From the NCBI GenBank assembly GCA_945862265.1, contig CAMAXP010000033.1, forward strand, positions 16,344 through 48,343: a DNA stretch of 32,000 bases, read 5' to 3'. This document shows, one piece after another, positions 5,580 through 30,329 of the stretch. Under the pieces are notes generated by a model that made no database searches, was not told the DNA's origin, and worked only from the letters and a program-made list of their open reading frames with translations. The translations under genes and the position numbers were made by a program. The stretch is from Bordetella parapertussis. Its GTDB lineage: Bacteria > Pseudomonadota > Gammaproteobacteria > Burkholderiales > SG8-39. Position 1 is the stretch's first letter. Each line of letters starts with the position of its first letter.

Positions 5580-5604
5580 ACCTTAGCACTGCCCCGTTGC
5601 CCTG

Positions 5605-5639: not shown

Positions 5640-5659
5640 CTGACCAAGGAGACCTGACG

Positions 5660-8432: not shown

Positions 8433-8489
8433 GTCCCATGATACCGCCCCGGCCTCGTGAAGCGCTCGGGCGCGAAGGTCGACTGACCT

Positions 8490-9677: not shown

Positions 9678-9746
9678 TGGTTGGCAGCAATTTGACTGGA
9701 GATCGGCTCCAGACGTGGGGTTGGTCGGCAAAGTGGCAGCAATTGG

Positions 9747-9989
9747 CTAAGGTGCCTCACCCAGCGCTAGAGCCGCGAACGAGGCAAGCCAGTGCTCACC
9801 TACGTAGTCGCCGCCAGTCGACTGCGGCAGGCCGGCGGCGAGCCAGGGAACGAACTCTGCATCGGGCAGCACAGCGCTCATCAGCTGCGCCTCGGTGAGC
9901 AGGTGGTCAAGCTTGCGCGGGTACTCGCGCGTGACGTTGGCAAGGGCGGCGCGCGCAAAGGCGCCGCCCAGTTCGGGAGTCAGGGTCAC
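9747..9989 (-). pseudogene. Short DUF2891-like remnant (possible internal deletion), translationally coupled to phnE
   Basis: The GTG at 9989 overlaps the phnE stop (TAGTG). The N-terminus LTPELGGAFARAALANVTREYPRKLDHLL resembles the start of ~330-aa DUF2891 proteins as I recall them, but the ORF ends after about 80 aa. The ORF-track upstream extension to 10082 lies inside phnE. Confidence 0.35.
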
Positions 9990-12326: not shown

Positions 12327-13318
12327 TTTTTTGCCGCCGCGCTGGCGCGAGCCTTTTCCTTCTCGAATGCCGTGGCCGTGAACGACTGGCCGCTGTCCTG
12401 CGCCACCTTGCGGATGATCTCCCAGTCCTTCCTGTAATCGATCGGCAGCCACCGGTCGGCGCCCTGGAAGCTCTTCACCATCTCGGGCGTATAGCGAAAG
12501 GCGTAGCTGCATTCGCGGATCTTCTGCTGCAGGGCCGGCGCGAGGTCGTGCGCCATCGACAGGCCGCCGGGCGGGAAACTGCGGCTCTTCCAGAGGATGC
12601 GGAAGTCGGACATTTTCACGAGCCCGCGCTCGGCCATGCGCACGAGGATGTCGTGCGCGATCGGGGCGGCGTCGAAGTCGCCCGCGGCCACGCCGGACAC
12701 CGAGTTCTCGTGCTTGCCCGAGAACAGCACCTTGTAGTCCTTGTCCGGCACCAGGCCCTCGGCCAGGAAGAGCGAGCGCGGCGCGAGGTTGCCGGAGTTG
12801 GAAGAGGGCGTGGTATGTGCGACGCGCTTGCCCTTGAGGTCGGAGAGCTTCTGGAACGGGCTGTCGGCCCTGACGATCATCCAGAGCTGGTAGCCCTGCG
12901 GGCCGTTTGCATCGCCCCGGATGCCGATCGGGATCGCACCGGCAACGTTGACTGCGAAGGCCGTGTCCCCGGACGACATCGTGCCCACGTGCATGCGCCC
13001 GGAACGCATCGCCTCGATCGCCGCCGCGCTGGAGAACACTTCGTAGTAGCGGAACTTGCGCGCCGTGCACTTGGCCAGGTGCTCGACGAAGGGCTCCATG
13101 AGTTTCCTGAACACCGCCGGGTCTTCGAGCGGCGAGTTGGAGAAGAACAACGTATCCGGGTCCTTGCGTCGCTTCGGGTCCTTGGGCGCGTCGGCCAGCA
13201 GGTCGCCGTCCTCGTCGCAGTAGGGCGTATCGAGTTCGCCGCGCTGCTTGCAGGCGTCCTGTGCGAGCGCCGGAAAGGCGAGTGCGAAGGCGGTGGCGAG
13301 AACCAGGGCGCGGATCAA
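12323..13318 (-). CDS. PhnD-family periplasmic substrate-binding protein, paralogue 1
   Basis: Signal peptide [19 protein letters not shown] and a PhnD-like anion-binding block [14 protein letters not shown]. The TTG start overlaps the upstream stop (TTGA). Confidence 0.82.
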
Positions 13319-14352
13319 GGCTTCTTCGCCTTGTCTTCGGCGGCTTTCCTCTTCGCGTCTTCTTCGCGCTTCGATTCCTTCTCGTAGGCGGTGCGATTGA
13401 AGGCTTCACCGCCGGTTTCGGCGACCTTGCGCACCACCTCCCAGTCCTTCTTGTAGGTTGCCGGGAAGAACCGGTCCGCGCCGTCGAAGGCCTTTTTCAT
13501 TTCCTCGGTGAAACGGTAGTCGTAGAAGCACTTCAGCATCTTGTCGCGGAAGACCGGCTCGAGGTCATGTGCATACGAAAAGGACGAAGTCGGAAACTTG
13601 GGGCTCCGGTAGAGGATGCGGAACTTGTTCTCGTCGATCTGGCCGCGCACGCCCATGCGGTGAAACACGTCGGAGGCCACCGCGGCCGCGTCGTAGTCGC
13701 CGGAATTCACCCCCAATATCGACTGGTCGTGCTTGCCGGAGAACAGGATGGTGTAGTCCTTGCCCGGGGCGAGGCCCTCGTTCGGGAATAGCGCGACGGG
13801 CGCCATGTGGCCGGAGTTGGAGGAGGGCGCGGTATGCGCGACTTTCTTTCCCTTGAGGTCGGAGAGTTTCTGGAACGGGCTGTCCTTCTTCACCACCACG
13901 ATCAGGTTGTAACCCTGGAACTCTTTTTCGTAGCCCTTGACCGCGAACGGCACCGCCCCGGCGATGTTCACCGCAAACGCGGTCGGGCCGGTCGAGAACC
14001 CGCCCACGTGCAGGCGTCCGGATCGCATGGCCTCGATCTCGGCCGCGTTCGACTGCACCTGGTAGAACACCACGCGCTTGCCGGTGCAGCTGGCGAGGTG
14101 GTCGGTGAAGGGCTTGAACACCTTTTCGTAGACCGCTGGGTCTTCCACGGGCGTGTAGGTAAAGACCAGCGTGTTCGGGGTCTTCAGCTTCTTCGAGTCT
14201 TTCGGCGTGTCGGCGACCAGGTCGCCGTTTTCGTCGCAGTACTGCGGATCGAGGTCGCCGCGATTCTTGCAGGCGTCCTGGGCGAGCGCGCCTGCGGAAA
14301 ACAGCGTGGCTGCAACGGCCCAGAGGCCGGACTTCAGCAATGTGCGTTTCAT
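13315..14352 (-). CDS. PhnD-family periplasmic substrate-binding protein, paralogue 2
   Basis: The start [24 protein letters not shown] (ATG at 14352) is preceded by AAAGGGA. It contains the block [14 protein letters not shown]. The ORF-track extension to 14571 overlaps paralogue 3 and is rejected. Confidence 0.85.
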
Positions 14353-14375
14353 GTCGCGTCCCTTTATGCCAACGG

Positions 14376-15383
14376 TCACTTCTTCTTCGCGCGGGCAGCC
14401 TCTTCCGCAGCACGTTCCTTGTCGAATCCGGTGCGGTTGTAAGGCGTCCCGGAATCCTCGGCGACCTTGCGCACCAACGCCCAGTCGTCCTTGTAGCTGA
14501 CCGGCAGGAACCGGTCGTCGCCCAGGAACTCTTTCTTCATTTCCGGGCTGAATCGATAGTCGAAGAAGCACTTGCGCACCCGCTCGGCGAGTTGCGGTTC
14601 CAGGTCGTGCGAGTGCGCGAAGGCCGAGGTCGGGAAGTGCCTGCTCTTGTAGATGATCCGCAGGTCGCCATCCTTGATGATGCCGCGGTTGATGAAGCGG
14701 TCGTAGATGTCGGAGGTGATCGGCGCGGCGTCGTAGTCGCCGTTGACCACGCCCATCAGCGACTGGTCGTGCTTGCCCGAATACAGCACCTTGTAGTCCT
14801 TGTCCGGCACCAGGCCCTCTGCCGGGAAGAGCGCGCGGGGCGCGAGGTTGCCGGAATTCGAGGAAGGCGCGGTGTGCGCCACCTTCTTGCCCTTGAGGTC
14901 GGCCAGCTTGTGAAACGGGCTGTCCTTCTTCACGATCACTACCTGGGTGTAAGTACGCGGTCCGGACTGGTCGCCCTTGATCGCGAACGGCACCGCCCCG
15001 GCGAGGTTCACCGCAAAGCCCACCTGCCCGCTGGCGAGGCCCGTCACGTGCAACCTCCCGGCGCGCATGGCTTCGATCTGGGCGGCGTTCGACTGCACCG
15101 TGAAGTACACGACTTTCTTGCCGGTGCAGCCGGCGAGGTGGTCCTGGAAGGGCTTGAACAGGTTCTGGTAGACCGCCGGATCCTCGATCGGGGTGTAGGC
15201 AAACACGAGGGTGGACGGGTTCTTCAGCCGCTTCACGTCCTTTGGGACGTCGGCGACGAGGTCCTTGTTTTCGTCGCAGTAGCTCGCGTCGAGTTCGCCG
15301 CGGGCCTTGCAGTCCTCCTGCGCGTGCGCGCCCGGGACAAATAGCAATATGGACGCCACCAGCGCGGTCCGGATCGGATCCAT
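14376..15383 (-). CDS. PhnD-family periplasmic substrate-binding protein, paralogue 3 (first gene of the operon)
   Basis: Signal peptide MDPIRTALVASILLFVPGAHA and block [14 protein letters not shown]. It is collinear with paralogues 1 and 2 over its full length. Confidence 0.85.
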   Translation of the reverse strand: MDPIRTALVASILLFVPGAHAQEDCKARGELDASYCDENKDLVADVPKDVKRLKNPSTLVFAYTPIEDPAVYQNLFKPFQDHLAGCTGKKVVYFTVQSNAAQIEAMRAGRLHVTGLASGQVGFAVNLAGAVPFAIKGDQSGPRTYTQVVIVKKDSPFHKLADLKGKKVAHTAPSSNSGNLAPRALFPAEGLVPDKDYKVLYSGKHDQSLMGVVNGDYDAAPITSDIYDRFINRGIIKDGDLRIIYKSRHFPTSAFAHSHDLEPQLAERVRKCFFDYRFSPEMKKEFLGDDRFLPVSYKDDWALVRKVAEDSGTPYNRTGFDKERAAEEAARAKKK

Positions 15384-18727: not shown

Positions 18728-18798
18728 GTCTGCTAGTCAGTAATTTTGACTCTGCAACAGCACTTCACTGCACTTTTAGGCTGACCACTAAGGCGCTG

Positions 18799-19041
18799 TT
18801 GGTCAGTCGATACAGCGCGTATCAGCAGCAGCTACTAAAGCGAGTTACTGAGCTAAGGCTTGGTCGTGGACTATCGTTTCTGAGAATTGCGAAGACGCTT
18901 AGGGAAGAAGGCGTTCTGTCGAGCAAGGGGTTGGTGCTGTCAGCGCAGCACGTTTACTCGATATTCAAGAAGGGAACGTCGAGAAAGCGTAGATTGGCTA
19001 CAAAGGCGAAGGCGAGACTTGTGCAGCTAGATGTACGATAA
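18799..19041 (+). CDS. Small ORF resembling the HTH part of a serine-recombinase 'recombinase' domain; possibly a 5'-truncated remnant
   Basis: LLKRVTELRLGRGLSFLRIAKTLREEGVLSSKGLVLSAQHVYSIFKKG has the same residue pattern as WVKRIFKEIIKKTSIANIKQLLEANGVLPRRKGLWSLGSINALISN in the 30330 recombinase. Only a TTG start is available, and the frame stays open upstream across the glmS junction. Confidence 0.3.
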   Translation: MVSRYSAYQQQLLKRVTELRLGRGLSFLRIAKTLREEGVLSSKGLVLSAQHVYSIFKKGTSRKRRLATKAKARLVQLDVR

Positions 19042-19127
19042 GGCATTGACACTCAGACGCTAGCTAGAAATGCGCAAACTTGCGTATTGAAAAACACGCG
19101 TCCGCTTAACAACGCAGTGGAGAAATA

Positions 19128-20033
19128 ATGGCAAAAAAATCGAAGTCTGAAAATGATCTCGCTTCCACTGACGATGCGTCTAAAGATGTACCAAGCTACG
19201 ACGAACTAATCTTTCCCACGATCAAGGCACTAAACGCTTTAGGTGGGTCTGGAACGATCGAAGAAATCGTTAATAAAGTGATCGGACTAGAAAACATATC
19301 CCAAACTGCTGCAACTGCAATGCACTTGAATCACAGCATGACTGCACTTGAATATCGATTGGCTTGGGCGCGTACATATCTAAAGCGCGTGGGCGCAGTA
19401 GACAACAGCACGCGTGGAATTTGGACAGTTACGGAAGTAGGAAAGAACTACACGCAAGATGATTGCGCCAAAGTTCCTGGCGAAGTAAGAAAGCAAGACA
19501 AACTCGCTCGCGAAGCAAAGAATGCAACTAAAAGCGAAAACGATAGTGAAGCAGATGAAAACGGCAACGGAGTTCTAGATTGGAAAGAAGAACTACTCAG
19601 CGCCCTTCGCAAAATAACTCCTGATGCATTCGAGCGTCTATCTCAGAGATTGTTACGTGAAGCGGGATTTACGAAAGTTGAGGTCAAAGGAAAGAGCGGT
19701 GATGGTGGAATCGATGGAATTGGAATCCTTCGCGTAAATCTTGTTTCGTTCACGATTCTTTTTCAATGCAAACGATATAAAGGCAGCGTTTCCGCTGGAG
19801 CAGTGCGCGACTTTCGTGGCGCAATGCAAGGACGTTGCGACAAAGGATTAATCGTAACAACTGGAACGTTTACTGCTGACGCAAAGAACGAGGCAACGCG
19901 CGATGGTGCACCAGCCATTGATCTAATTGATGGCGAAAGCTTATGCGATCTGTTGAAGCAATTGCGACTAGGGGTAGAAGTAAAAGCAGTGGAGTCAGTG
20001 ATAATCAATTCAAAGTGGTTTGAGTCGATATAG
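19128..20033 (+). CDS. mrr: Mrr-family (type IV, modification-dependent) restriction endonuclease
   Basis: 301 aa. N-terminal Mrr winged-helix block (PSYDELIFPTIKALNALGGSGTIEEIVNKV) and a C-terminal Mrr catalytic core (FERLSQRLLREAGF...GKSGDGGIDGIG...LFQCKRYKGSVSAGAVRDFRGAM...GLIVTTGTFTADA). SD GGAGA lies upstream. Confidence 0.85.
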   Translation: MAKKSKSENDLASTDDASKDVPSYDELIFPTIKALNALGGSGTIEEIVNKVIGLENISQTAATAMHLNHSMTALEYRLAWARTYLKRVGAVDNSTRGIWTVTEVGKNYTQDDCAKVPGEVRKQDKLAREAKNATKSENDSEADENGNGVLDWKEELLSALRKITPDAFERLSQRLLREAGFTKVEVKGKSGDGGIDGIGILRVNLVSFTILFQCKRYKGSVSAGAVRDFRGAMQGRCDKGLIVTTGTFTADAKNEATRDGAPAIDLIDGESLCDLLKQLRLGVEVKAVESVIINSKWFESI

Positions 20034-20160
20034 CGTCGATATGCTTGAACGCTTTTATCTGAGCCATCTGCAAGGCGAGATGAACGTAGTGGCGCTGCAA
20101 TCGCAGAAGCACAAGAAGAAGACGAGTGCAAAAAATAAGGAAAAGAAAGTAGCGAGAAGC

Positions 20161-20196
20161 AAAAAAGAGAGAGCGCCTACGTAGCACTCTCTCTCA
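20161..20196 (-). terminator. Rho-independent terminator for the minus-strand AAA+ operon
   Basis: The minus strand reads GAGAGAGTGC-tacgtag-GCGCTCTCTC followed by TTTTTT (9 of 10 stem pairs). Confidence 0.65.
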
Positions 20197-20198
20197 CT

Positions 20199-20219
20199 TG
20201 TCGTTCAAAACGACATTCT
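20199..20219. repeat. Palindromic repeat copy 1 (TGTCG-TTCAAAA-CGACATTCT)
   Basis: It shares the core TGTCGTTCAAAACGACAT with the copies at 22611 and 22645. It lies 3 nt past the AAA+ gene stop. The stem here is shorter (7 bp). Confidence 0.8.
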
Positions 20220-20222
20220 CGA

Positions 20223-20873
20223 TCAAGCAGTTTTCGCAAACGACTCAGCGCGCACTCGCTTCGCCATATCTCTATAACTGCCATTCGATCTCCTAGCTAG
20301 CGCGATAAGCTCATTGTCTGTTGCGTTAGTCCAAGATGAATCGTTAGCCACGCCACGCACATAAGAAAGACACGCTGCCAATGGTGGTGCGTTCATTTCA
20401 AGCACATGAGAGCGATCTTTAATCGCGTCGTTTACCTCAGTAATGAAGTTCGTGGTTAACACAAAACACACGTAATTTTTGTTCATCGCTGATTGAAGAG
20501 AACGTTGTGCACTCTTAGAGAGATTGTTAACTTCATCAAGCACGACAAAGCTAAGCCCACTCGGACTGAATGGCGAGTTCAACGCTAGCTTTTGGACCAG
20601 AGCGACTTGCGCTTCGCCTTCCTTGCCTTGCTTGCATGGGAACACGCTCTTAAACGAGCCACCACCACCATAAGCTTGATCAATAAGCTCGGGCAATAGC
20701 GTCGCAAGCGTCGTCTTGCCCGTGCCATATGAGCCATATAGCAAAATTCCAGTCGTTCCACTTTCTGGAAATGGCATCGTACGATTGACAATCGCGTTAA
20801 GAATCTTCGCAGTCTTAGAGCTACTGAATGAAAAGTCATTAAGACTTGTAGGAGTAAAAGTAATTTGAGACAT
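20223..20873 (-). CDS. Truncated RFC/clamp-loader-like AAA+ ATPase (216 aa)
   Basis: Walker A GILLYGSYGTGKTTLA, Walker B FVVLDEVNNL, an RFC-box-like SKSAQRSLQSAMNK, and sensor-1 / SRC-like CFVLTTNFITEVNDAIKDRSHVLEM. There is no C-terminal collar domain. SD AAGGAA lies upstream. Confidence 0.75.
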   Translation of the reverse strand: MSQITFTPTSLNDFSFSSSKTAKILNAIVNRTMPFPESGTTGILLYGSYGTGKTTLATLLPELIDQAYGGGGSFKSVFPCKQGKEGEAQVALVQKLALNSPFSPSGLSFVVLDEVNNLSKSAQRSLQSAMNKNYVCFVLTTNFITEVNDAIKDRSHVLEMNAPPLAACLSYVRGVANDSSWTNATDNELIALARRSNGSYRDMAKRVRAESFAKTA

Positions 20874-20933
20874 ATAAATTCCTTGATTGAAGTAGCGTGA
20901 TACAGCGTGAGCTGTACCACGTGTAGCTTTTAA

Positions 20934-21734
20934 TTAAGCAGACGCAGCAGCAGAATTGCCGAGCGACGATTCGTTGTGATAAGCGATTAGCGCAGCCTTG
21001 ATCGCAGTCTTGTTCTTGACGACGCCATGAATTTCGAATTCGCCACTAGCGCGCATTACAAGAATCGCGAGCAACGCTTGATCGTAGTCAGTGACATCAA
21101 TGCGTTTTGAAACTTCTTCATCGCGAATAGATGTCAACGCAACTGCTGTCTGAATCGCAGTGCGAGCGCGTTCAGCACGATCAACAGGAGATAGCGAATT
21201 TGGCGTTTTGGAACGACGGAGTTCTTGCACGCCACCATGCTTTTCAATGAATGCTGCGAGATCATCGACAGCAATCTTCTTGTCGAGAGCGCAACGCAGA
21301 GCCAAGCTGTAAGTGCTGATGCGACTTCGATCAATGCTCTGCGTGTCATCGAAGAAGACGCACTTGACGACCTTGACGATGCCATGAGTGCCACTCTTGC
21401 ACTTGATTGCGTTTGTCTCGCAGAACGTCTTGAGTTCAGCGCGAAGAGCCTTAGCTGAGTCATTGCTCTGACCCATTGCGTGATAGAACGCATAGCACTG
21501 CGAGAGAATTCCATATAGCTGCTGATTGCTCGTGCGATACGCGTTAGTCTCCCAATGCTTACGCTCTTGAACGATAGTGCTGAGCTTAACTGCTGCCCCA
21601 ACAGCCTCTGTGAGCGACGCATGACCTTCTAGGTCGTAAGTGAGCTTCACTGAGACGTTGGTGGGGACAGTCACGCTAGGAATATTCTCTTGAGCGACTG
21701 CGTTGCTAACTGCTTCTTTAATTGCGACTTTCAT
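20934..21734 (-). CDS. Hypothetical protein (266 aa, apparently helical), first gene of the AAA+ operon
   Basis: Clean ORF with SD AAAGGAAA and coding-like composition. I recognise no family motif. Confidence 0.6.
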   Translation of the reverse strand: MKVAIKEAVSNAVAQENIPSVTVPTNVSVKLTYDLEGHASLTEAVGAAVKLSTIVQERKHWETNAYRTSNQQLYGILSQCYAFYHAMGQSNDSAKALRAELKTFCETNAIKCKSGTHGIVKVVKCVFFDDTQSIDRSRISTYSLALRCALDKKIAVDDLAAFIEKHGGVQELRRSKTPNSLSPVDRAERARTAIQTAVALTSIRDEEVSKRIDVTDYDQALLAILVMRASGEFEIHGVVKNKTAIKAALIAYHNESSLGNSAAASA

Positions 21735-21825
21735 GGTATTTCCTTTCTAAATGTGTCTGATGCGGTATTGATCAGATCACATGTACATTCTATAGACGTA
21801 TGACTGTATTTCCCATTTCCATCTA

Positions 21826-22602
21826 ATGGAGACTATTAAGGTGATAAGAAAAATAGAACAAAAAAGGGCTAGAAAATTCAAAGGAGTCACCCCACGCTTT
21901 GGAATGAAGAAGAACCCACGCCCTCTCAAAGATCAGCAAGTCAGTCCCTACTATTGGTGGTGGGCGTATCTGAAGAGAAGCAAGCAATACATCGCGTGCT
22001 GTAAGCGTGGTGGGAGGGGAAAGCTCGAAAAGCTTTACGCTGACTTTGGAGATGTCAGAGGCGATGACTTCAAAGCGTGGTGGACTGAAGGAGAGCGAGG
22101 TCGCGAGCTATTCGCTGAGCAGCAGTCAGTTCATGGCGTGATCGAGCTGAAGAGCAAAGACGAATGGCTAGATGAGTGGCGTAGCGATTCGACGTTGATC
22201 GTCGCCATACCCCTAGAATGGAGCAAGCGCTACTTGCAGAAACGACTGCTCGCGTTGCTAAGAAAGAGACACACGAGAGGACCAGGTCGTCTCGCGCTGA
22301 AGGGACGAGAGACAAGCGATGCGCGATACCCTCTAGCGCGAAACTTCAATGTGAACAGTCTGAAGACCGATCTTGCTGTGTACGACGCTATAGAAGCGAG
22401 CAAGAAGGCTGACGAAAAGAAGACGTACTACGAAATGGGAGTTGAGCTAAAGCTTGTTCGTACTGCACTGCCCACAGCACTAGATATCAAAATGAAGAAG
22501 CGTGATGCAGATAAAGCAAACTCGATGACTGTGGCAGTCAGCAGATCGTATACGAGGGCAAAGACAGTAGTCGAGAACGTGGGGAAGGGCGTTTTCCCCT
22601 AG
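21826..22602 (+). CDS. Hypothetical basic Trp-rich protein (258 aa), divergent from the AAA+ operon
   Basis: Distinctive N-terminal block SPYYWWWAYLKRSKQYIACCKRGGRGKLEKLYADFGDVRGDDFKAWW, and the protein ends in GKGVFP. No SD is obvious, so the start is uncertain (a GTG at 21841 is an alternative). Confidence 0.55.
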   Translation: METIKVIRKIEQKRARKFKGVTPRFGMKKNPRPLKDQQVSPYYWWWAYLKRSKQYIACCKRGGRGKLEKLYADFGDVRGDDFKAWWTEGERGRELFAEQQSVHGVIELKSKDEWLDEWRSDSTLIVAIPLEWSKRYLQKRLLALLRKRHTRGPGRLALKGRETSDARYPLARNFNVNSLKTDLAVYDAIEASKKADEKKTYYEMGVELKLVRTALPTALDIKMKKRDADKANSMTVAVSRSYTRAKTVVENVGKGVFP

Positions 22603-22610
22603 ATCCGCTC

Positions 22611-22635
22611 AAGATGTCGTTCAAAACGACATCTT
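22611..22635. repeat. Palindromic repeat copy 2 (AAGATGTCGTT-CAA-AACGACATCTT)
   Basis: Perfect 11-bp arms. The outer arm bases differ from copy 3 by compensatory changes on both sides. Confidence 0.8.
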
Positions 22636-22644
22636 TGGAGGGCG

Positions 22645-22669
22645 AGAATGTCGTTCAAAACGACATTCT
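22645..22669. repeat. Palindromic repeat copy 3 (AGAATGTCGTT-CAA-AACGACATTCT)
   Basis: Perfect 11-bp arms. It lies 9 nt from copy 2 and 13 nt from the 3' end of the tyrosine recombinase gene. Confidence 0.8.
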
Positions 22670-22682
22670 GAGGTGACGTGGA

Positions 22683-23282
22683 CTAGATCATCTCGACTGT
22701 GGTGCGCAGCATTGCAGGATTGAGATCGATGTATCGCTGAGTTGTAGCCAAATTTTTGTGCCCTGCCAATTCCATTAGCACGCGCACATTCGCGCCTTTG
22801 CTCGCAAGCAATGTGATAAAACTGCGGCGCCCACTGTGCGAGCTAGCTCCTACGATTCCAGCCCTCTTGTAGATGTAGTGCATAAGCTGTGCTGCTGTAT
22901 TTGGCGTAAAGCCACGATCTGGATGCTTCTGAGTACAGAAAAGCGCCCTAGTTGTGTCAGTCATAGTGACTGCTTTCAAATCCTTCAGCTTGAAGCGCGC
23001 TGACAGATACGCATGAAGCTCTTCTTGCAAGCGCTTCGGCAGAAGAACAGTCCGAGCACGATCACCTTTCGTCTGACTTGCAGAAAGTCTGATTTCGTCA
23101 AGAATCGACCCATCTGAATTCAGTACATCGCACAGACGCAGCGATGCGACCTCTCCAATTCGCATTCCTGCGAGATGTGTGGACAGAAACATCGCTTTGT
23201 TACGCGCACCGTGTTTGTGAGCAGCCATGTAGAGCAGAACACGACGCACCTCTTTCTCGTTCAGAACCTTCGCTTGTGACAT
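22683..23282 (-). CDS. Minimal tyrosine recombinase (catalytic domain only, FimB/FimE-sized)
   Basis: 199 aa. Catalytic pattern is R in LAGMRIGE, H-x-x-R in HSGRRSF, and GHKNLATTQRY with the terminal Tyr. There is no N-terminal core-binding domain. SD AGGAGA lies upstream. Confidence 0.85.
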   Translation of the reverse strand: MSQAKVLNEKEVRRVLLYMAAHKHGARNKAMFLSTHLAGMRIGEVASLRLCDVLNSDGSILDEIRLSASQTKGDRARTVLLPKRLQEELHAYLSARFKLKDLKAVTMTDTTRALFCTQKHPDRGFTPNTAAQLMHYIYKRAGIVGASSHSGRRSFITLLASKGANVRVLMELAGHKNLATTQRYIDLNPAMLRTTVEMI

Positions 23283-24407
23283 TTAGATCTCCTAGTAATC
23301 AAAGACTTGCTATGTATTTAGTGTGAACCCTTTGATTCGATCGGAGAAGCCTCAAGGCGAAAAATATGTTCCTTCCGTTTATCAATGGCTTACAGATATA
23401 CCAAATATATTATGTAGGAGCTTTGGTATTCAGCTCGAATCGCGCTGAGACGAATCCACATCTGAATTGATCTCAGACTACAGATCCACGCGTTGCGTTG
23501 GTCCTGTGCGGTCCTGAGCAGTTCTAGGGCGCAGCGTGATTGCTCGCAAGTCAGTCGATCTGAAGTGCAGATGCAAATAGTTCTTGGGTAGGGCAGAACG
23601 GAGTAGCTGACTTCGACTTGAGCCCATAGCTCTGTGCAGAATTAAATGCTTTTTCTACTACAGCGTTCATCATTCTTGAACTGAGCGCTTCGCACTCAGT
23701 AGCTGCTGCGAAAACTACGTTTTCTTGCAGCTTTCTTTTCAATCATTCTTTCCTAGACTCGGAATCTATGGGTTTGTAATTGGCTGAAACTATGTGTCTT
23801 AGAACTTCTTACCCCATTTGCAAGATTCGACCCACACTGAGCCTTAAGCAACAAGGCCCAATAAGTGGAAGATTTATTTGCTGAGTTCTTACCACGAGCA
23901 CTTCAGCACAACCTCAAGTAGAACAAGGTGAAGGGCAGTTTCGCTATCTCCTTTTACGTGCTGCTGATGAAACGCAACTATCTTGCAGTAGCCGAAGTGC
24001 CAACCACTGCAAAGTCGCAAGTTGCTGTGTGAGCATTTCTTGCTTATGACGCACAGCTGTACAAGCTGTCATCTTCGCGCCTAGATATTTCCCCTTGCAT
24101 CAGTTCGATGGCGATCTCGAACAGCGTCCAATACTGCAGATAGTGATTGCAAGTCTTCGCCACTACTCGAAGTTTCCATCCCTGTGAACATCAATGACCA
24201 GGTCTAGGGCATCAAATCAACTGCGTGATGCGGCGCGTTTATTAGTGGAAAGCAATGGCGCCCAACTGATGATCTAGTCTGCGTCACAGTTATTTATGCC
24301 TAACCAAAGAGAAGGAATAAAAAAGCAAAGCTATTTGGCGATGAACGGATAGGAATGAATTGGGCATGGCAATACAGTGAATGCACTCAAACAAAAGGAG
24401 ATTGACC

Positions 24408-24848
24408 ATGAGTGCATTGAATAGCTTGAAGCTTGTCGCAGCAGTACGTATCAACGTGATGTCGCCTGTCCAATTTCGCAGAAACAAGCTCGCTGCGAAG
24501 CTCGCAGATCAAATCGAACTAGCTAAGGCGATGAAAGAGGGCAAGACGTACGTGGCTACACGAGTGCGTAACGTGAAGGATCGAATCACGGGCGAAGTGA
24601 CGAGCGTCGAGCAGACGCGTAAAGTGCGTCCGTGGTGGTTTCGTGCTGAGAGCGGTAAGACTTGCGTTCAGCTCAAATACGGAACAAAAGTACTCGACTT
24701 CGCTAAGGGCAAGAATTCAGTTGAAGTCGCTAACGAGACTGAGTTGATCTCAGTCTTGGAGACGCTGAAGAAAGCATGCGAAATGGGCGAGCTTGACGCT
24801 CAGATGGCTACTGCGAGTGAGGCAGTGAAGGATCGATTTAATAAGTAA
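24408..24848 (+). CDS. Hypothetical protein (146 aa) heading the type III R-M gene block
   Basis: The ATG at 24408 follows SD AAGGAG (24395-24400) and begins MSALNSLKLVAAVR. It contains RKVRPWWFRAESGKTCVQLKYG and MGELDAQ. It resembles a conserved proteobacterial family of unknown function that I cannot name with confidence. Confidence 0.65.
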   Translation: MSALNSLKLVAAVRINVMSPVQFRRNKLAAKLADQIELAKAMKEGKTYVATRVRNVKDRITGEVTSVEQTRKVRPWWFRAESGKTCVQLKYGTKVLDFAKGKNSVEVANETELISVLETLKKACEMGELDAQMATASEAVKDRFNK

Positions 24849-24915
24849 AGTTTGCCAGAACTAATCCGTTGTCGAAGCACTGTTCATACATAAAAATGAT
24901 CGAGGAGCTAAAAGA

Positions 24916-24942
24916 ATGAGCAACCTAAGGACTAAAGAATGA
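24916..24942 (+). CDS. 8-codon leader mini-ORF (MSNLRTKE) coupled to the mod start
   Basis: Strong SD GAGGAG (24902-24907) lies 8 nt before the ATG at 24916. Its TGA (24940-24942) overlaps the mod ATG (24939-24941). mod itself has no SD. Confidence 0.3.
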   Translation: MSNLRTKE

Positions 24943-27083
24943 AGCTCACAGACAACGAAATACGTGACATTACTAAACTTCTAGAGGAGGGTAAGACTCT
25001 TCCTGATAAGTACCGCTTTATGTTGTTCGGAGACGAGCGGGAAATTGAACTCGTATGGAATGGAAAGTCTCAAGAAGTCACTAATGTAGTTATGCCCTTC
25101 CAGACTATTGAGCATGTTGATGAGCCTAGAGCTGAAGTTGACATGCGTATCCAACCAGAACTTTTTGACTTGGAAACTGGGCGACAACTGAAAGGTTGGA
25201 CAAATAAACTGATTTGGGGTGACAACAAGTTTGTATTGTCTTCGCTTAAGAGTGGTCCACTTCGTGATGAGATTGAAGCAAATGGTGGAATCAAATTAAT
25301 CTATATTGATCCACCATTTGATGTTGGTGCTGATTTCACGATGGAAGTCGAAATCGGTGATGAAAAGCTTTCAAAAGAGCCCAATGTATTAGAGGAAATA
25401 GCCTATAGAGATACATGGGGCAAAGGTACTGATTCATTTCTTTCAATGATTTATGAGCGCCTAATATTAATGCGAGATTTATTAGCAAAAGACGGAAGCA
25501 TTTATGTTCATTGCGACTGGCGTGTTACAGCAGTAATGCGACAAGTTCTCGATGAAGTTTTTGGACAATCTAATTTGATAAATGAAATAATATGGTATTT
25601 CAGCCAGGGCGGAAAAGGGACATCATATTTTGGTAAAAAACATAACACTATTTGGTTGTACGGAAAGAATGAAAATCCATTTTTCAATGAAAGTGCAGTT
25701 AGATTACCATTTACACCGCATAAACAAGATTCTTCAGGGAAAAATTATGGTGGCAGGATGGGAGCTGACGAAAATGGAAGGCAGTATGTCGAAAAATGGG
25801 GAACGGGGAAAAAGAAATTATATCGATACTATTTGGATGAGGGCAAGCTACCTGAAGATGTATGGACAGATATTCAATCAATACAATCTGCAGCCATTGA
25901 AAGAGTTGACTACCCAACACAAAAGCCTGAACCTCTTCTAGAGAGAATTATCAAGGCGAGCAGCAATCAAGGTGATTTGGTGGCTGATTTTTTCTGCGGA
26001 AGTGGAACTACTGCGGCTGTAGCAGAAAAGTTGGGAAGAAAATGGATTACATCAGACTTGGGAAAGTTCTCAATTCATACGGCTAGAAAGCGATTGATAA
26101 ATGTCCAAAGAGAGCTAAAAGCCGAGGCTAAAGATTTCCGTGCATTTGAAATTCTTAACCTTGGCAAATATGAACGGCAATTCTTCGTTTCTGGCTTGGA
26201 TGACCTTGATGCAAAGTCAAATTCTCAAATTGAACGAAACAAAGAACTTGCTTTCAACACTCTGATTCTCAATGCATACAAAGCAGAGCCTGTCTCGGGA
26301 TTTAGAACTTTTCGTGGCAAAAAGCAGAACCGAATTGTCGCTATTGGTCCAGTAAATTTGCCAGTCTCAAGACTCTTCGCAGAGCAAGTAGTCGCCGAAT
26401 GTGTCGAGAAGGGGGTAACGAAGGTTGACTTGGTTGCTTTTGAATTCGAGATGGGACTGTTCCCAAGCATTCAGGATGATGCTTCCTCTAGAGGGGTCGA
26501 CTTAGTTCTGAAGCACATTCCAAAAGAAGTCTTTGACAAGAGAGCAATAGATAGAGGTGAAGCACGGTTTCACGATGTTGCATACATTGAAGTCAAGGCG
26601 CATTTCAACGGTCTATCACTCGCAGTCGAACTAACAAATTACTCAGTCTTTTATACACAGGGAATCACCTCCATCACTGAAGAAAATCTCAAAAACGGTG
26701 GTAGTCAAGTTGTAGTTGAAAACGGGCAAGTCATAAAAATCAGCAAAGACAAAGACGGCTTGGTCAACAAGCGTGAACTGCTTACGAAGAATTGGCACGA
26801 CTGGATTGACTACTGGTCAATCGATTTCGACTTCACCAATCGAAAAGAGACTGTTCGCATCAAGGACAAGAAGACTGGTGAAGACAAGGACACTTGGACA
26901 GGCGATTTCATATTTGAAAATGAATGGCAATCTTTCAGAACTCGGCAAGACCGAACAATTGAGTTGAAGTCAATTTTCAAAGAACTACCCCCAGGCAAGC
27001 GCAAAGTCGCAATCAAAGTCGTTGACATTTTTGGCAATGACACGATGAAAGTCATTACAGTCACTATTGGGGAGAAGCGGTAA
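24939..27083 (+). CDS. mod: Type III restriction-modification methyltransferase (beta-class N6A/N4C MTase)
   Basis: 714 aa. Motif IV LIYIDPPFDVG (aa 121-130) precedes YPTQKPEPLLERII and motif I ADFFCGSGTTAAVAEKLGRKWI (aa 349-370). The stop overlaps the res start. Confidence 0.88.
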   Translation: MKLTDNEIRDITKLLEEGKTLPDKYRFMLFGDEREIELVWNGKSQEVTNVVMPFQTIEHVDEPRAEVDMRIQPELFDLETGRQLKGWTNKLIWGDNKFVLSSLKSGPLRDEIEANGGIKLIYIDPPFDVGADFTMEVEIGDEKLSKEPNVLEEIAYRDTWGKGTDSFLSMIYERLILMRDLLAKDGSIYVHCDWRVTAVMRQVLDEVFGQSNLINEIIWYFSQGGKGTSYFGKKHNTIWLYGKNENPFFNESAVRLPFTPHKQDSSGKNYGGRMGADENGRQYVEKWGTGKKKLYRYYLDEGKLPEDVWTDIQSIQSAAIERVDYPTQKPEPLLERIIKASSNQGDLVADFFCGSGTTAAVAEKLGRKWITSDLGKFSIHTARKRLINVQRELKAEAKDFRAFEILNLGKYERQFFVSGLDDLDAKSNSQIERNKELAFNTLILNAYKAEPVSGFRTFRGKKQNRIVAIGPVNLPVSRLFAEQVVAECVEKGVTKVDLVAFEFEMGLFPSIQDDASSRGVDLVLKHIPKEVFDKRAIDRGEARFHDVAYIEVKAHFNGLSLAVELTNYSVFYTQGITSITEENLKNGGSQVVVENGQVIKISKDKDGLVNKRELLTKNWHDWIDYWSIDFDFTNRKETVRIKDKKTGEDKDTWTGDFIFENEWQSFRTRQDRTIELKSIFKELPPGKRKVAIKVVDIFGNDTMKVITVTIGEKR

Positions 27084-29794
27084 TGGCAATTCATCCGAAC
27101 TTTCCCCTGTCTCCTCACGAAATTCTCACCCCAGATGTGAGATGGTTTCCAGCAGATGAATCGTTGCGTGAGTCTTCATTTGAAAAATTGCTCCCTCCGC
27201 TTGTGCATGAATTACGTAGGCGTGTCTTTGACTGGAGAAATAGAAATTACGAAGGTGTCAGCGCAACAACAAAGTCATTACTGACATGGTGGTTTGACAC
27301 TTCTCATCCGATGCCACAAGCGGACGGAACAATTGGTAATTTCCAATACTACTTTGCACAAAGAGAGTCAGTTGAAACAGTCATCTTCTTGCATGAAATC
27401 ATTCAAGTAGCAGACAAGCAAGATTTGCTTCGATTTGATACTAGAGGTGTTGTAACTCCAAGACTCATAGAAGAGACTTGGAGAAGGTATGTCATCAAGA
27501 TGGCAACTGGTAGTGGCAAAACAAAAACAATGAGTTTGCTACTCGCTTGGTCGTTCTTCCACAAGAAGTATGAAGAAGGTTCAGACCTTTCTAAAAACTT
27601 CTTGTTAATTACTCCAAACATCATTGTTCTTGACAGGATTAGAAAAGACTTTGATGGGCTTAAGATTTTTGAAGAAGATCCAGTCGTACCAGACAACGGA
27701 TTTGATGGTAGAGAATGGAAGTCAGACTTTCAATTGACACTTCACATTCAAGATGAAGTTGGACCAATCTCACCTACAGGGAACATTTTTCTTACGAATA
27801 TTCATCGTGTCTACGACGATAAAAGCGTTCTTCCAACTGAGAATGACGAAAATAGTATGGACTATTATTTTGGTAACAAGCCAAAAGGAAAAACAAACGA
27901 CTCATCGGTAGACTTAGGAAAAATAATTCGTGATATCGATGAACTGGTTGTAATCAACGATGAAGCCCATCACATCCACGATAGTAAGCTGGCGTGGTTC
28001 AAGTCTATTGGTGACATTCATAACAAGTTGAAACAAAAAGGGTCACAACTATCGTTACAAATTGACGTTACAGCAACTCCTAAACACTCTAATGGAGCAA
28101 TATTTGTTCAGACAATTGCTGACTACCCACTCGTAGAGGCGATTCGCCAAAACGTAGTTAAGCATCCTGTCTTACCTGATCCACCAAGTCGAGCCAAGTT
28201 AAATGAAAAGCAGAGTTCGGTTTATACAGAGAAGTATTCTGATTACATCAATCTAGGGGTGACTGAGTGGCGTAAGGTTTATCCAGAGCATGAAAAGCTC
28301 GGGAAGAAAGCTGTGCTGTTCATCATGACGGACGACACAAAGAACTGCGATGCTGTTGCGGAATACCTTGAGCAGACATTTCCTGAACTGAAAGGTGCTG
28401 TCCTAACGATTCACACTAATAAAAATGGTGAAATTGACGATAACCCTTCGTCTAAAGCATCAAAAGAGGAATTAACTTTGCTCAGAGATCAAGCAAACAA
28501 GATTGATTCCTTCTCCAGCCCATACAAAGCAGTAGTGTCAGTTCTCATGCTTAAGGAGGGTTGGGACGTTAGAAATGTTACGACCATTGTTGGACTTCGA
28601 GCATTTGCTTCTCAAGCAAAGATCCTTCCTGAACAAACGCTTGGTCGAGGTCTTAGGAGAATGTATCCAAGTTCAGAAGCCGAAGAATATGTGAGTGTGG
28701 TTGGTACGCAAGCATTCATGGACTTTGTTGAAACAATTCAAACAGAGGGCGTTGAACTTGAGAAGCGTCCGATGGGTGCTGGTACTAAAGCAATAGGTCC
28801 CATGATTATTGAGGTCGACGACGCAGATGATGACAAAGATTTAGACGAACTAGACATTGAGATTCCAGTTCTTTCGCCACGTAGCATACGAGAGTACAAG
28901 AATCTTGATGAACTTGACCTAGACACATTTGAGTTTGAGGTCTGTGAGTATCGTGAATTCACTGAAGAAGAGCAGCGACAGATTGTCTTTAGAGACATAA
29001 CAACAAATGAAATAACTCACACAACAATGCTGGAAGGCGCATTTGCTAGTGATTATCGAAGCGTAATTGGACACTTTGCCCAAGCTGTCTTGAAAGACTT
29101 GCGACTCTATGCGGCTTACGACCTGCTTTACCCAAAGATTCAAGAATTTGTAGAGTACAAGTTATTTGGTCAAAAAGTTACCTTAGAAGACGCCAACACT
29201 ATTCGAAATCTTTCAGAGCCTAACGCATCAAGAGCAATTTTCGATGTGTTTAAAAAAGCTATCAATAATTTGACTGTCCGTGATGTTGGTAACGCAGAGA
29301 TAAGAGACACGATCAAGATTAGAAACATGCGTCCTTTTGTTGTTAAGGATCAGAAGAATCTTCCAGCAAAGAAGTCTGTCTTCAACAAGATTGTTGGTGA
29401 TAGTGTTCTTGAACTTCGCTTCGCGCAGTTCTTAGAAAAGTGCCCAGACGTTGTTTCTTACGCCAAGAACTACTTCGCATTGAACTTCAAGATTGACTAT
29501 GTCGATGCGACTGGGAATATTGCAAACTACTATCCTGACTTTATTGTTAAATTGTCTGGAACTGAAGTCTATGTAATTGAAACTAAGGGTCTCGAAGACT
29601 TAGATGATCCATTGAAAGTCAGGCGCTTAAAACAGTGGTGTGAAGATGTCAACGCGACTCACAGTAACGTCAAGTTTGACTTTGTATATGTTGATCAGGA
29701 CGCGTTTGACATGTTTACAGAAGAGGGTGGTAAGTTGAAAGGGCAACTTAACTCATTCTCTGACTTGGTTAAATTTTTCACTGCTTACAAGTAG
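27083..29794 (+). CDS. res: Type III restriction enzyme Res subunit (SF2 helicase plus C-terminal PD-(D/E)xK nuclease)
   Basis: 903 aa. Walker A KMATGSGKTKT, DEAH box VINDEAHHIH, helicase C-terminal block MLKEGWDVRNVTTIVGLR, and nuclease motif YYPDFIVKL...VYVIETKG. The start overlaps the mod stop as TAATG, and SD GGGGAG lies upstream. Confidence 0.9.
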   Translation: MAIHPNFPLSPHEILTPDVRWFPADESLRESSFEKLLPPLVHELRRRVFDWRNRNYEGVSATTKSLLTWWFDTSHPMPQADGTIGNFQYYFAQRESVETVIFLHEIIQVADKQDLLRFDTRGVVTPRLIEETWRRYVIKMATGSGKTKTMSLLLAWSFFHKKYEEGSDLSKNFLLITPNIIVLDRIRKDFDGLKIFEEDPVVPDNGFDGREWKSDFQLTLHIQDEVGPISPTGNIFLTNIHRVYDDKSVLPTENDENSMDYYFGNKPKGKTNDSSVDLGKIIRDIDELVVINDEAHHIHDSKLAWFKSIGDIHNKLKQKGSQLSLQIDVTATPKHSNGAIFVQTIADYPLVEAIRQNVVKHPVLPDPPSRAKLNEKQSSVYTEKYSDYINLGVTEWRKVYPEHEKLGKKAVLFIMTDDTKNCDAVAEYLEQTFPELKGAVLTIHTNKNGEIDDNPSSKASKEELTLLRDQANKIDSFSSPYKAVVSVLMLKEGWDVRNVTTIVGLRAFASQAKILPEQTLGRGLRRMYPSSEAEEYVSVVGTQAFMDFVETIQTEGVELEKRPMGAGTKAIGPMIIEVDDADDDKDLDELDIEIPVLSPRSIREYKNLDELDLDTFEFEVCEYREFTEEEQRQIVFRDITTNEITHTTMLEGAFASDYRSVIGHFAQAVLKDLRLYAAYDLLYPKIQEFVEYKLFGQKVTLEDANTIRNLSEPNASRAIFDVFKKAINNLTVRDVGNAEIRDTIKIRNMRPFVVKDQKNLPAKKSVFNKIVGDSVLELRFAQFLEKCPDVVSYAKNYFALNFKIDYVDATGNIANYYPDFIVKLSGTEVYVIETKGLEDLDDPLKVRRLKQWCEDVNATHSNVKFDFVYVDQDAFDMFTEEGGKLKGQLNSFSDLVKFFTAYK

Positions 29795-29861
29795 CGTATT
29801 AATTATTAAAAATGCAAATCATCTGAAAGAGAGAAATAAAGAAAGAAAGCTAAATACTCAC

Positions 29862-30221
29862 ATGCGAATCGACGAAGTAGCGGGACTGAAGACTTTCATT
29901 GCAACGGTGAGGGTCAAGAATGGCTCAAACGTAACAACGACTAAGACACCAATTCAAGCAGATGGGCAGATGCAAGCTCGTGCCATCATGACGCGCATCT
30001 TTGGGGAAGGAAACGTGCTTGCAGTGCTTGAGACTTCTCAGATCGCTGAGATGGAAGGAGGCACGAAGACGCTATCTGCAGCGGAATTGCGCGTTAAGTC
30101 TCTTGCTGACCAAGCAAAAAAACTTCAGGCGCAAAAAAAGCAAGAGGTCGCAAGGCAGTCATTGGACAAGGCACAGAAGAGAATGGCTGCGGCAAATCGT
30201 CCAAAGAAAACCGCACTGTAA
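29862..30221 (+). CDS. Hypothetical protein (119 aa) with a Lys/Gln-rich C-terminal tail
   Basis: ORF between res and the serine recombinase. It has no clear SD. N-terminal block KTFIATVRVKNGSNVTTTKTPIQADGQMQARAIMTRIFGEGNV is followed by a charged helix-like tail. Confidence 0.4.
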   Translation: MRIDEVAGLKTFIATVRVKNGSNVTTTKTPIQADGQMQARAIMTRIFGEGNVLAVLETSQIAEMEGGTKTLSAAELRVKSLADQAKKLQAQKKQEVARQSLDKAQKRMAAANRPKKTAL

Positions 30222-30329
30222 GCGCCATTTTCCATAGCAGGAGGCTAGGAAAAGAACGTCTTCGGCTATACAGTTGCACTCAGTCGAACTTCATTTTCTT
30301 CGTTGAACTGAGTAACTATAAAAGTATAG

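Follow-up and report, generated by a model that had tools for sequence, protein, structure and literature searches.

The gene trio and its setting

The window considered here, a stretch of 32,000 nucleotides (nt) from a Bordetella parapertussis genome assembly (contig CAMAXP010000033.1, positions 16,344 to 48,343), contains three neighbouring genes that an earlier note, made from the sequence alone, had singled out as a candidate for an uncharacterised defence or mobile-element maintenance system. Two of these genes lie on the minus strand, where a protein of 266 amino acids (aa; 20934-21734) is encoded 5' of a 216-aa AAA+ ATPase of the clamp-loader clade (20223-20873), in the same orientation and separated from it by a 60-nt gap. 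The third, transcribed divergently from this pair, encodes a Trp-rich protein of 258 aa (21826-22602, plus strand). All three reading frames are present at the coordinates originally assigned to them, and the other sequence features noted at the time are likewise there. The trio is bracketed by members of a family of palindromes of 17-25 bp with the form TGTCGTT-N3-AACGACA. When placed beside its relatives, the trio, which recurs in dozens of freshwater bacteria, emerges as the hypervariable centre of the backbone shared by a family of integrative islands that appears not to have been described, and not as a stand-alone defence trio. Its position between Mrr and a type III restriction-modification (R-M) system, which had suggested a role in defence, is confirmed as far as both of these neighbours are concerned, but a small recombinase gene, an RNA gene and a gene for a DUF6641 protein separate the trio from the type III genes.

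A hypervariable centre in a conserved backbone

A scan of species-representative genomes with a profile of the Trp-rich protein returned 60 loci, the majority of which belong to freshwater Betaproteobacteria (Polynucleobacter, Limnohabitans, Methylophilaceae, Comamonadaceae and Dechloromonas). The comparison covered 65 related loci, designated here by L-numbers, whose six-frame open reading frames (ORFs) were searched with the proteins of the window; 54 non-redundant loci have room for the trio. The 266-aa gene is divergent from the Trp-rich gene in 31 of these 54, with a median gap of 137 nt and a control region of 34-417 nt, and in 28 of the 54 the ATPase gene is also present, a median of 56 nt downstream of the 266-aa gene. 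In the other 23 loci with sufficient room, the Trp-rich gene occurs without the ATPase/266-aa pair. The small recombinase converges on the Trp-rich gene in 18 loci and on the ATPase gene in 6; in the latter 6 of 24, the trio thus has the opposite orientation with respect to the recombinase, and the four-gene block as a whole is inverted between the window and L009. Relatives often carry a full-length tyrosine integrase (424-438 aa) convergent with the ATPase gene, and DUF6641 lies at a distance of 1-2.5 kb, in one island co-transcribed with AlpA. The mobile-element half of the earlier proposal is supported by this fixed arrangement, which recurs in integrative islands together with integrases, tRNA genes or glmS, the small recombinase, DUF6641 and sometimes AlpA.

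Across 25 complete loci (300 pairs), pairwise identities of the ATPase and of the 266-aa protein are closely correlated (Spearman rho 0.83), whereas the identity of either protein follows those of the Trp-rich protein, the recombinase and DUF6641 far less closely (rho 0.19-0.32). The ATPase and 266-aa genes are a tight, co-evolving two-gene unit, to which the Trp-rich gene is loosely tied. The trio, whose genes are real and recur together, is therefore not one module, since the Trp-rich gene evolves apart from the pair. Where the recombinase and DUF6641 proteins of two islands share 93-100% identity, the values for the ATPase, 266-aa and Trp-rich proteins run from 24% to 94%, and it is on account of this disparity that the trio proteins are regarded as hypervariable alleles in a conserved backbone. 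The pair, and separately the Trp-rich gene, is swapped as alleles within a backbone that consists of the integrase, the small recombinase, the RNA known as Polynucleobacter-1 and DUF6641. The cargo of the islands, by contrast, varies.

Other origins for the trio were considered and set aside. A phage or satellite origin was rejected: 50,697 phage records contain no match to the Trp-rich protein, no relative of it is found on IMG/VR contigs, and PHROG matches are limited to generic clamp-loader and integrase families. An assignment to plasmid replication or partition genes was likewise rejected, the three partial matches all being hypothetical proteins on Bradyrhizobium plasmids. No published description of the island system was found in literature searches.

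The clamp-loader-like ATPase and its 266-aa partner

The earlier note had recognised RFC/clamp-loader boxes in the 216-aa protein, an assignment that is amply borne out. The ATPase matches the NCBIfam models for the RFC small subunit (E = 7e-11) and DnaX (4e-9), PHROG clamp loaders (2e-14) and the PDB entry 2chg, itself an RFC small subunit (9e-5), whilst a profile of 29 ATPase homologues matches the RFC small subunit with an E-value of 3e-34, T4 gp44 with 2e-27 and DnaX with 2e-18, the alignment with the RFC small subunit spanning positions 3-214. The boxes kept in the 29 homologues comprise KYxP, Walker A (GxxGxGKT), Walker B (DE), TTN, an xRC Arg finger, which reads DRS in the ATPase of the window, and GSxR; invariant residues of the family are G47, G50, K53, E114, T140, N142, R154 and R201. 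The homologues are all 215-240 aa long and end 10-30 residues past sensor 2, and the matches to RFC end at about residue 208 of 320. Because every member ends shortly after sensor 2, the C-terminal collar (domain III) is absent from the family, and the truncation noticed in the window is thus a shared property, the protein consisting of ATPase and lid. Judged by its sequence, the ATPase is a catalytically intact RFC-type AAA+ protein without a collar. No sliding-clamp gene was seen in the islands examined.

The partner protein is considerably more enigmatic. No motif had been recognised in it before, and curated families, fold comparison and PDB profiles have not altered this: neither the 266-aa nor the 258-aa protein has a match in Pfam, NCBIfam, PHROGs or PADLOC, and profile searches of the PDB gave nothing convincing. 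The AlphaFold model of the 266-aa protein is mostly helical, with a mean predicted local distance difference test score (pLDDT) of 77, and has no Foldseek neighbour at E < 0.2 in the PDB or BFVD. Residues N70, L73, Y74, L77, R136, Y142, A149, G167 and G168 are invariant in the family. Neither Asp nor Glu is among these positions, a DDE signature is missing and no transposase family is matched, so that the 266-aa protein differs from the transposase of an IS21-type gene pair. Whilst a word-indexed search found 11 homologues, a profile search found 74, and metagenomic contigs carry the exact 266-aa protein with the same neighbours. A weak match to Pfam DUF3175 is seen in 21 of 48 scanned family members (alignment A3, distant relatives; best E-value 8.7e-6), and such matches, at the level of sequence, link the 266-aa family to another domain of unknown function. 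In L006, a second ORF of 266 aa (5975-6775, minus strand), which belongs to no family and has no phmmer match to the 266-aa protein of the window, lies between DUF6641 and the small recombinase.

Palindromic sites within and around the backbone

Three palindromes are found in the window. Palindrome A (TGTCGTTCAAAACGACATTCT; 20199-20219) is located between the stop codon of the ATPase gene and the intrinsic terminator of the 266-aa/ATPase transcription unit, which is formed by a 13-bp stem and a T run (20165-20195, minus strand); the module does have, as had been claimed, a canonical terminator of its own. A role for the palindrome itself as terminator was rejected for site A, beyond which this separate terminator lies. 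Palindromes B (AAGATGTCGTT CAA AACGACATCTT; 22611-22635) and C (AGAATGTCGTT CAA AACGACATTCT; 22645-22669) are both perfect 11-3-11 repeats, lie 34 nt apart between the convergent Trp-rich and recombinase genes and differ in their outer arms, an arrangement that is the same in L009. Copies of TGTCGTTCAAAACGACA number three in the 32-kb window against 0.07 expected, and there are no sites in the 18.7 kb of host DNA of the window or in the Polynucleobacter locus L046. The bracketing palindromes pointed out in the earlier note are thus real and are more informative than the operator proposed alongside them.

The core TGTCG-N7-CGACA is found in relatives down to approximately 33% protein identity. 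Symmetric variants of it (GTCGTT, GTCCTT, GTCGGT, GTCGTG and GTCCTG..CAGGAC) are lineage- or module-specific: GTCGGT..ACCGAC is found in L073, GTCGTG..CACGAC in L074, L024 and L036, and GTCCTT..AAGGAC in L017 and L021. In L025, which contains two tandem backbone modules (1750-5830 and 8000-14400), the first has the variant GTCCTGATTCAGGAC and the second AGTCGTTTWAAACGACT, at equivalent positions past the stop codon of the ATPase gene and past the gene that stands in the place of the Trp-rich gene. Of 112 sites with perfect arms, 66% are intergenic, compared with 16% of the DNA, and 40 lie within 30 nt of a stop codon (7.3 expected), the genes so followed belonging to both backbone and cargo; their median spacing is 1.4 kb, with close-spaced clusters at 34, 43, 43, 46, 46 and 46 nt. 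Sites also occur within coding regions. In many loci, the first 50-130 nt of the 266-aa gene include a palindrome that is in phase with the reading frame and is translated as VVLND or VVQND (e.g. L016, 9808-9824), and in some loci one lies in frame at about codon 65 of the Trp-rich gene (e.g. L045, 10174-10190). Over both kinds of gene, the peptides encoded are VVLND, VVQND and VVSND; the window's own 266-aa gene has no in-frame copy.

Recurrent palindromes are all but confined to loci with the pair. They are present in 20 of 33 loci with the 266-aa and ATPase genes and in 3 of 33 without them (Fisher's exact test, 1.9e-5). A further comparison concerns 13 loci that carry the recombinase but did not yield both genes of the pair; here, recurrent palindromes are confined to L061 and L067, both of which have a match to the 266-aa gene, and the remaining 11, which have no such match, have none. 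The variants point in the same direction: L074 and L024 share GTCGTG, and their ATPase and 266-aa proteins are mutual best matches, which their Trp-rich, recombinase and DUF6641 proteins are not, whilst L073 and L074 have close Trp-rich proteins and different site variants. The Trp-rich protein and the small recombinase are both disfavoured as readers of the palindromes, since neither co-varies with the sites and there are loci that possess them and have no palindromes. Outside these genomes, the exact palindrome is found on at least 120 metagenomic stretches, mostly from fresh water, and among the 120 matches listed, usually short stretches, 39 carry a backbone gene.

Composite junction units of approximately 130 nt, in which GTCCTTTAAAAGGAC, 28 nt, TGTCGnTTnAAnCGACA, 24 nt and TGTCGTTTTAAACGACA follow one another so that three palindromes are combined, are located in L022 (866-1000 and 1305-1452) and L037 (11086-11225 and 20424-20572). 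These units recur between genomes and resemble mosaics of the bacterial interspersed mosaic element (BIME) type.

The Trp-rich protein and the divergent region

The unusual Trp-rich block that had been noticed in the 258-aa protein is real and constitutes the conserved core of a large family, YYWWWAYL(K/R)R(S/N)...CC...LYADFGDV...F..WW. A word-indexed search returned 413 homologues and an exhaustive search 1328 clusters at 50% identity, and none of these more than 1300 clusters bears a function name. The AlphaFold model is confident (pLDDT 89), and its C-terminus is predicted to form a helix, a long turn with a short helix and a long helix; it has no Foldseek match below E = 0.2 in the PDB or BFVD, and no solved structure, that of RovC included, was recovered by profile search either.

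A lead is offered by the N-terminal motif WW(A/E)(Y/F)L(K/R)R(S/N), which reads WWAYLKRS in the window protein, WWAYLRRN in the family consensus and WWEFLRRN in several members. The sequence 'AWEFLRRN' in helix alpha-2 is the hallmark motif of DUF6499; in FseA, a DUF6499 domain packs on a C-terminal extended-turn helix-turn-helix (HTH), and FseA activates the excision genes of an integrative and conjugative element (PMC10359603). The same paper refers to a crystal structure of RovC (PMC10359603). In common with FseA and RovC, which combine DUF6499 with DUF2285, the Trp-rich protein is of approximately 250-266 aa, has its gene on integrative elements and contains an N-terminal helix of the form W-(E/A)-(F/Y)-L-(R/K)-R-(N/S)-x-x-Y. 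In contrast to them, its family reaches the Pfam model PF20109 only below the cut-off (8 of 61 members, over 12-17 residues and at 17-21 bits, the best 20.9 against a cut-off of 23.8), does not match DUF2285, the extended-turn HTH domain with which the predicted C-terminal helices are nevertheless compatible, and shows no programmed frameshift in its gene. The Trp-rich protein is thus a candidate FseA/RovC-like transcription activator, a resemblance of sequence that serves as a lead and not as family membership.

The divergent intergenic region (21735-21825) is 91 nt long and contains the inverted repeat TCTGAT-N9-ATCAGA (21756-21776), for which the earlier note had proposed an operator function. 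Although the repeat is present, roughly 0.4 repeats with 6-bp arms are expected by chance in a gap of this length over spacers of 0-20, by our own estimate, and in the closest relative, L009, CTGA...TCAG alone is kept; being at about chance level and partly conserved, the repeat was rejected as an operator. In a simple scan, no sigma-70-like promoters were found between 19900 and 24500, compared with 5.1 +/- 2.2 in shuffled sequences, a depletion that would be expected if promoters of the island core depended on an activator or were not of the sigma-70 type.

The small recombinase, the Polynucleobacter-1 RNA and DUF6641

The conserved neighbour of the trio is a tyrosine recombinase of 199 aa (22683-23282, minus strand), which matches Pfam PF00589 over residues 5-189 (6e-25) and in which R41, K72, H149, R152, H175 and Y184 can be read from the sequence as catalytic residues. 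It lacks an N-terminal core-binding domain and, with its catalytic domain alone, is similar in size to FimB and FimE; against the model of integron integrases it scores 49 bits, the cut-off being 265.

Upstream of the small recombinase lies Polynucleobacter-1 (Rfam RF01718; 24096-24236, minus strand), which matches its model over the full length of 1-141 with 83.8 bits (gathering threshold 37; E = 5e-17). Weinberg et al. (2010, PMC2864571) listed this motif, without a function, among candidate RNAs, its sources being Burkholderiales and fresh water. The covariance model detects it in 14 loci; in every one of these in which the small recombinase is also detected, the RNA lies 5' of that gene on the same strand. 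Conservation continues for approximately 310 nt past the Rfam model, without a reading frame and with a few compensatory pairs, so that RNA and ORF-free extension together occupy 23780-24236 (minus strand); a protein-coding gene between RNA and recombinase was rejected, the similarities being found in all frames and on both strands, as is expected of non-coding sequence. The Polynucleobacter-1 RNA is, from this pattern of conservation, probably some 450 nt long. The conserved backbone gene for the DUF6641 protein (24381-24848, plus strand) follows and leads, in the window, into the type III R-M genes.

Palindromes as boundaries of exchanged modules

Pairwise identity profiles of selected loci allow the limits of exchanged segments to be compared with the positions of the palindromes. 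Between L016 and L018, identity is approximately 85% in the integrase, approximately 60% in the ATPase and 266-aa genes and at least 92% beyond the palindrome in the 5' part of the 266-aa gene. The divergent block, which is bounded by the sites at 8358 and 9808, corresponds exactly to the ATPase and 266-aa genes, and the jump to 92% identity takes place within one 30-nt window, inside the 266-aa coding region. A unit with a gene for a 250-aa protein begins exactly at a palindrome in three genomes and at different places (L018, 3401-4330; L039, 956-1870; L067, 16224-17130), a layout that suggests the tandem accretion of integrating units; this unit ends with a sequence resembling the 3' end of a tRNA (GGTTCGATTCC...CCA) and a terminator. 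The type III R-M system of L022 has sites on both of its flanks.

Over all loci, 4 of 74 ends of homology blocks lie within 15 nt of a site, where 0.64 are expected and the maximum in shuffles is 4. This is a weak enrichment, and the targeted identity profiles are more informative than the block-end test over all loci. Collectively, the boundary data fit recombination at or near the palindromes but fall short of proving site-specific recombination, because homologous exchange between conserved flanks also puts boundaries at module edges.

A possible role of the pair in DNA exchange

The reading favoured here, to which a probability of about 0.35 is assigned, is that the pair may act as a palindrome-directed, ATP-driven DNA-handling module of the island, in the service of recombination or cassette exchange. 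The palindromes would be bound sequence-specifically by the 266-aa protein, on which the collar-less RFC-like ATPase would assemble, with ATP being used for building or remodelling a nucleoprotein complex at these sites, so that the ATPase would be a helper comparable to IstB, TnsC, MuB or TniB. The complex of pair and palindrome would then license strand exchange, most plausibly by the adjacent tyrosine recombinase with its lone catalytic domain, and the outcome would be the replacement of modules or cassettes and the inversions that are seen between genomes. The divergent promoters would be driven by the Trp-rich protein as an FseA-like activator, and the Polynucleobacter-1 RNA may be part of the same machinery. 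Within this scheme, the comparative links are what has been observed, and it is from these that binding, ATP use and recombination are inferred. A more far-reaching version, which we consider unlikely, would see in the 266-aa protein and the ATPase a new site-addressed DNA-exchange machine and in the island an integron-like platform that swaps and inverts cassettes, those for R-M included, among freshwater bacteria. In that event strand exchange could be catalysed by the small tyrosine recombinase or by the 266-aa protein itself, by means of its invariant Tyr and Arg, and the RNA of approximately 450 nt possibly a further component.

A number of observations weigh against a palindrome-directed module. 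In the 266-aa protein, no fold for DNA binding or catalysis can be recognised and no acidic residue is invariant, and the AAA+ clade of IstB is DnaC-like and not that of the clamp loaders. Co-variation of site variant and pair is drawn from essentially one independent clade, and the association of palindromes with the presence or absence of the pair could be partly taxonomic, although a Polynucleobacter locus without a canonical 266-aa gene has no sites in 20.7 kb, which runs counter to such an explanation. The boundaries in L017 and L019 are equally sharp with a variant site or none, and ordinary homologous recombination would also put module boundaries near gene ends. The core of L037 has no site inside it, and L022 has two site families with a single pair. 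In the metagenomes, approximately 58% of the palindrome-bearing stretches of 8 kb or more among the matches listed show no backbone gene.

These backbone-free copies, together with the composite BIME-like clusters, would be accounted for if the palindromes spread independently of the proteins, as autonomous repeats resembling repetitive extragenic palindromic (REP) elements or BIMEs that form mRNA-stabilising or terminator hairpins, or recombination-prone DNA, and are mechanistically unrelated to the trio. Their position past stop codons, the self-complementary flanks that differ between B and C, the units of three palindromes and the location of the sites of L037 exclusively outside the core agree with such an origin. 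It is nonetheless improbable, given that variants are module-specific within the single genome of L025, that palindromes accompany the pair and are missing from the host DNA of the window and from L046, and that in-frame copies are conserved within coding regions; moreover, no curated transposase family is present among the core proteins or the neighbourhood sample, although no search aimed at RAYT/HUH was made. A defence system of three proteins acting by themselves against phages or plasmids is more improbable still and was rejected as the leading reading on the PADLOC result and a survey of neighbours. The proposal drew on the position between Mrr and the type III genes, and it could further appeal to R-M or toxin cargo near several relatives, to fast protein evolution and to absence from viral contigs. 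Yet the one match to PADLOC-DB 2.0 is a generic AAA+ resemblance of the ATPase to TRIP13 (26 bits), the remaining two proteins matching nothing there. A sample of 148 neighbours is modestly defence-related (porins 6, integrases 6, caspase 3, DNA methylases 4, restriction enzyme 1 and many housekeeping genes) and is dominated by cargo unrelated to defence. The genes are tied to recombinases, integrases, the RNA and island-specific sites and not to variable defence neighbours, no nuclease, protease, NADase or pore effector domain is detectable in the three proteins, and the independent evolution of the Trp-rich gene argues against a three-protein system.

Two further explanations assign the palindromes to control or to replication. 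The main rival of the favoured reading, if a somewhat doubtful one, is that the pair serves the replication of the excised island, with the 266-aa protein as origin-binding initiator and the ATPase as a loader that recruits the host helicase or sliding clamp; palindrome pairs and triplets 34-46 nt apart would then be iteron-like origin elements, and hypervariability would reflect initiator-origin specificity and incompatibility. The ATPase has its nearest relatives exclusively among the clamp loaders of replication, the islands examined showed no further gene for replication, and site variant and pair co-vary. Allelic replacement within a conserved backbone is initiator-like, the close-spaced clusters of sites have the spacing just mentioned and a site inside the 5' end of the 266-aa gene recalls the origin of phage lambda, which lies inside gene O. 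Against this, the sites are dispersed through the cargo at about one per 1.4 kb instead of being clustered at one origin and mark the boundaries of cassettes and modules, which an origin does not explain; there is no helicase or primase, and the ATPase is without the collar on which a canonical clamp-loader ring depends. Less likely than this is a regulatory switch of the immunity type, in which the Trp-rich protein would be an FseA-like activator, the 266-aa/ATPase operon its antagonist or effector, and the palindromes operators or roadblocks that silence or insulate island genes, the allelic diversity amounting to hetero-immunity as in lambdoid immunity regions. The divergent layout with its control region, the FseA-like size and WEFLRRN-type motif (PMC10359603), the depletion of sigma-70-like promoters, which fits activator dependence, the palindromes that many loci have in the initial 50-190 nt of each of the two divergent genes and the hypervariability of the region within a conserved backbone are all in keeping with a switch of this kind. 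It conflicts with the position of most sites, which are at the 3' ends of genes and between convergent genes and not at promoters, and with the failure of the Trp-rich protein to follow the site variants in L073 and L074. An RFC-type ATPase is, in addition, without known precedent as the partner of a repressor, and the match to PF20109 is below threshold and extends over 12-17 residues only, no solved structure having been recovered by fold or profile search.

Relationship to described systems

The individual parts of the island each resemble something known, namely a clamp-loader ATPase, the FseA motif, a tyrosine recombinase, REP- or attC-like sites and an Rfam RNA, but taken together they correspond to no system described so far, and two of the trio proteins are without family or fold. 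The likeness of the ATPase to RFC, T4 gp44 and DnaX-HolB extends over its whole length and includes the KYRP-type box, Walker A and B, sensor 1, the SRC-type Arg finger and the GSxR of sensor 2. However, whereas the collar holds the pentamer of a clamp loader together, the ATPase ends after the lid and is encoded with the 266-aa partner in mobile islands instead of beside polymerase genes, with no clamp gene nearby. In gene order, the pair is reminiscent of the transposon helpers IstB, MuB, TnsC and TniB, as in these systems, too, a small ATPase gene is found directly downstream of a gene for DNA recognition or recombination in a mobile element, and by analogy this order suggests ATP-controlled assembly on DNA. 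IstB, the one helper compared in this respect, belongs to a different AAA+ clade, and the islands differ from transposons in that the nearby recombinases are of the tyrosine or serine type only and the 266-aa protein is without a DDE signature.

The islands share with integrons short palindromic elements directly past stop codons near a tyrosine recombinase, and cargo that is bounded by these elements. The attC sites of integrons, by contrast, are long imperfect hairpins, whilst the palindromes of the islands are conserved, near-perfect, 17-25 bp in length and also present inside backbone genes. The recombinase is a catalytic domain of 190-200 aa, and loci that have it but no 266-aa gene are without recurrent palindromes; neither attC-type hairpins nor an IntI-type integrase were found in the island. 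REP elements and BIMEs resemble the palindromes in their location past stop codons, in their variable self-complementary flanks and in their composite units with conserved spacers, but REP elements are spread genome-wide, whereas the palindromes are enriched near one island backbone and have module-specific variants. Similarly, the pair shares with lambda O/P and with the Rep-ori module of staphylococcal pathogenicity islands (SaPI) the two-gene operon, the site inside the first gene, mosaic replacement and specificity groups. Sequence or fold similarity to those modules is lacking, the sites are dispersed, and the second protein belongs to the clamp-loader clade and is not of the helicase-loader type.

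If the favoured reading is true, a widespread and unannotated set of genes would gain its context as the backbone of an integrative island family that shuttles cell-surface, R-M and other cargo among freshwater Betaproteobacteria, a clamp-loader-type ATPase would be at work outside replication, collar-less and with a new partner, and a short palindrome code would delimit exchangeable modules. The Polynucleobacter-1 RNA gains a genomic home and testable partners. For the mining of defence islands, a practical rule follows, in that conserved genes situated between defence genes can be the vehicle and not a new weapon.

The island in the window and its host boundary

Host DNA in the window has a G+C content of approximately 65% up to the stop codon of glmS (18727), directly past which the low-G+C island begins (18728-32000, 40-51%) and continues to the end of the window. 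In order, it contains an 80-aa ORF, Mrr, the trio, the 199-aa tyrosine recombinase, an ORF-poor gap of 1.1 kb and DUF6641, followed by the type III Mod and Res genes, a 119-aa ORF and a large serine recombinase (30330-32000+), which lies at the far end of the island and runs off the window. A 20-nt inverted repeat, 90% complementary (22673-22692 and 24268-24287), encloses the small recombinase gene and the RNA region; as it was seen in the window alone and not in other loci, it was dropped as a feature of the element.

Between Mrr and the trio, a 54-aa ORF (20020-20184, plus strand) is the 3' remnant of a tyrosine integrase gene. It comprises the last 53 codons of a 438-aa gene, retains the catalytic-Tyr motif MLERFY and is 96% identical to the C-terminus of the intact 438-aa integrase in the near-identical element L004. 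Mrr abuts the point of truncation, the remainder of the integrase gene having given way to the Mrr end of the island. We infer that the element in the window is without an integrase of its own and is carried by the large-serine-recombinase island at glmS. The arrangement of glmS and serine recombinase is common to L009, L046, L051, L052 and L072, whilst other related islands have a tyrosine integrase adjoining a tRNA gene. The 80-aa ORF (18799-19041), which has a weak match to a 'Recombinase' domain, is found again after glmS in relatives.

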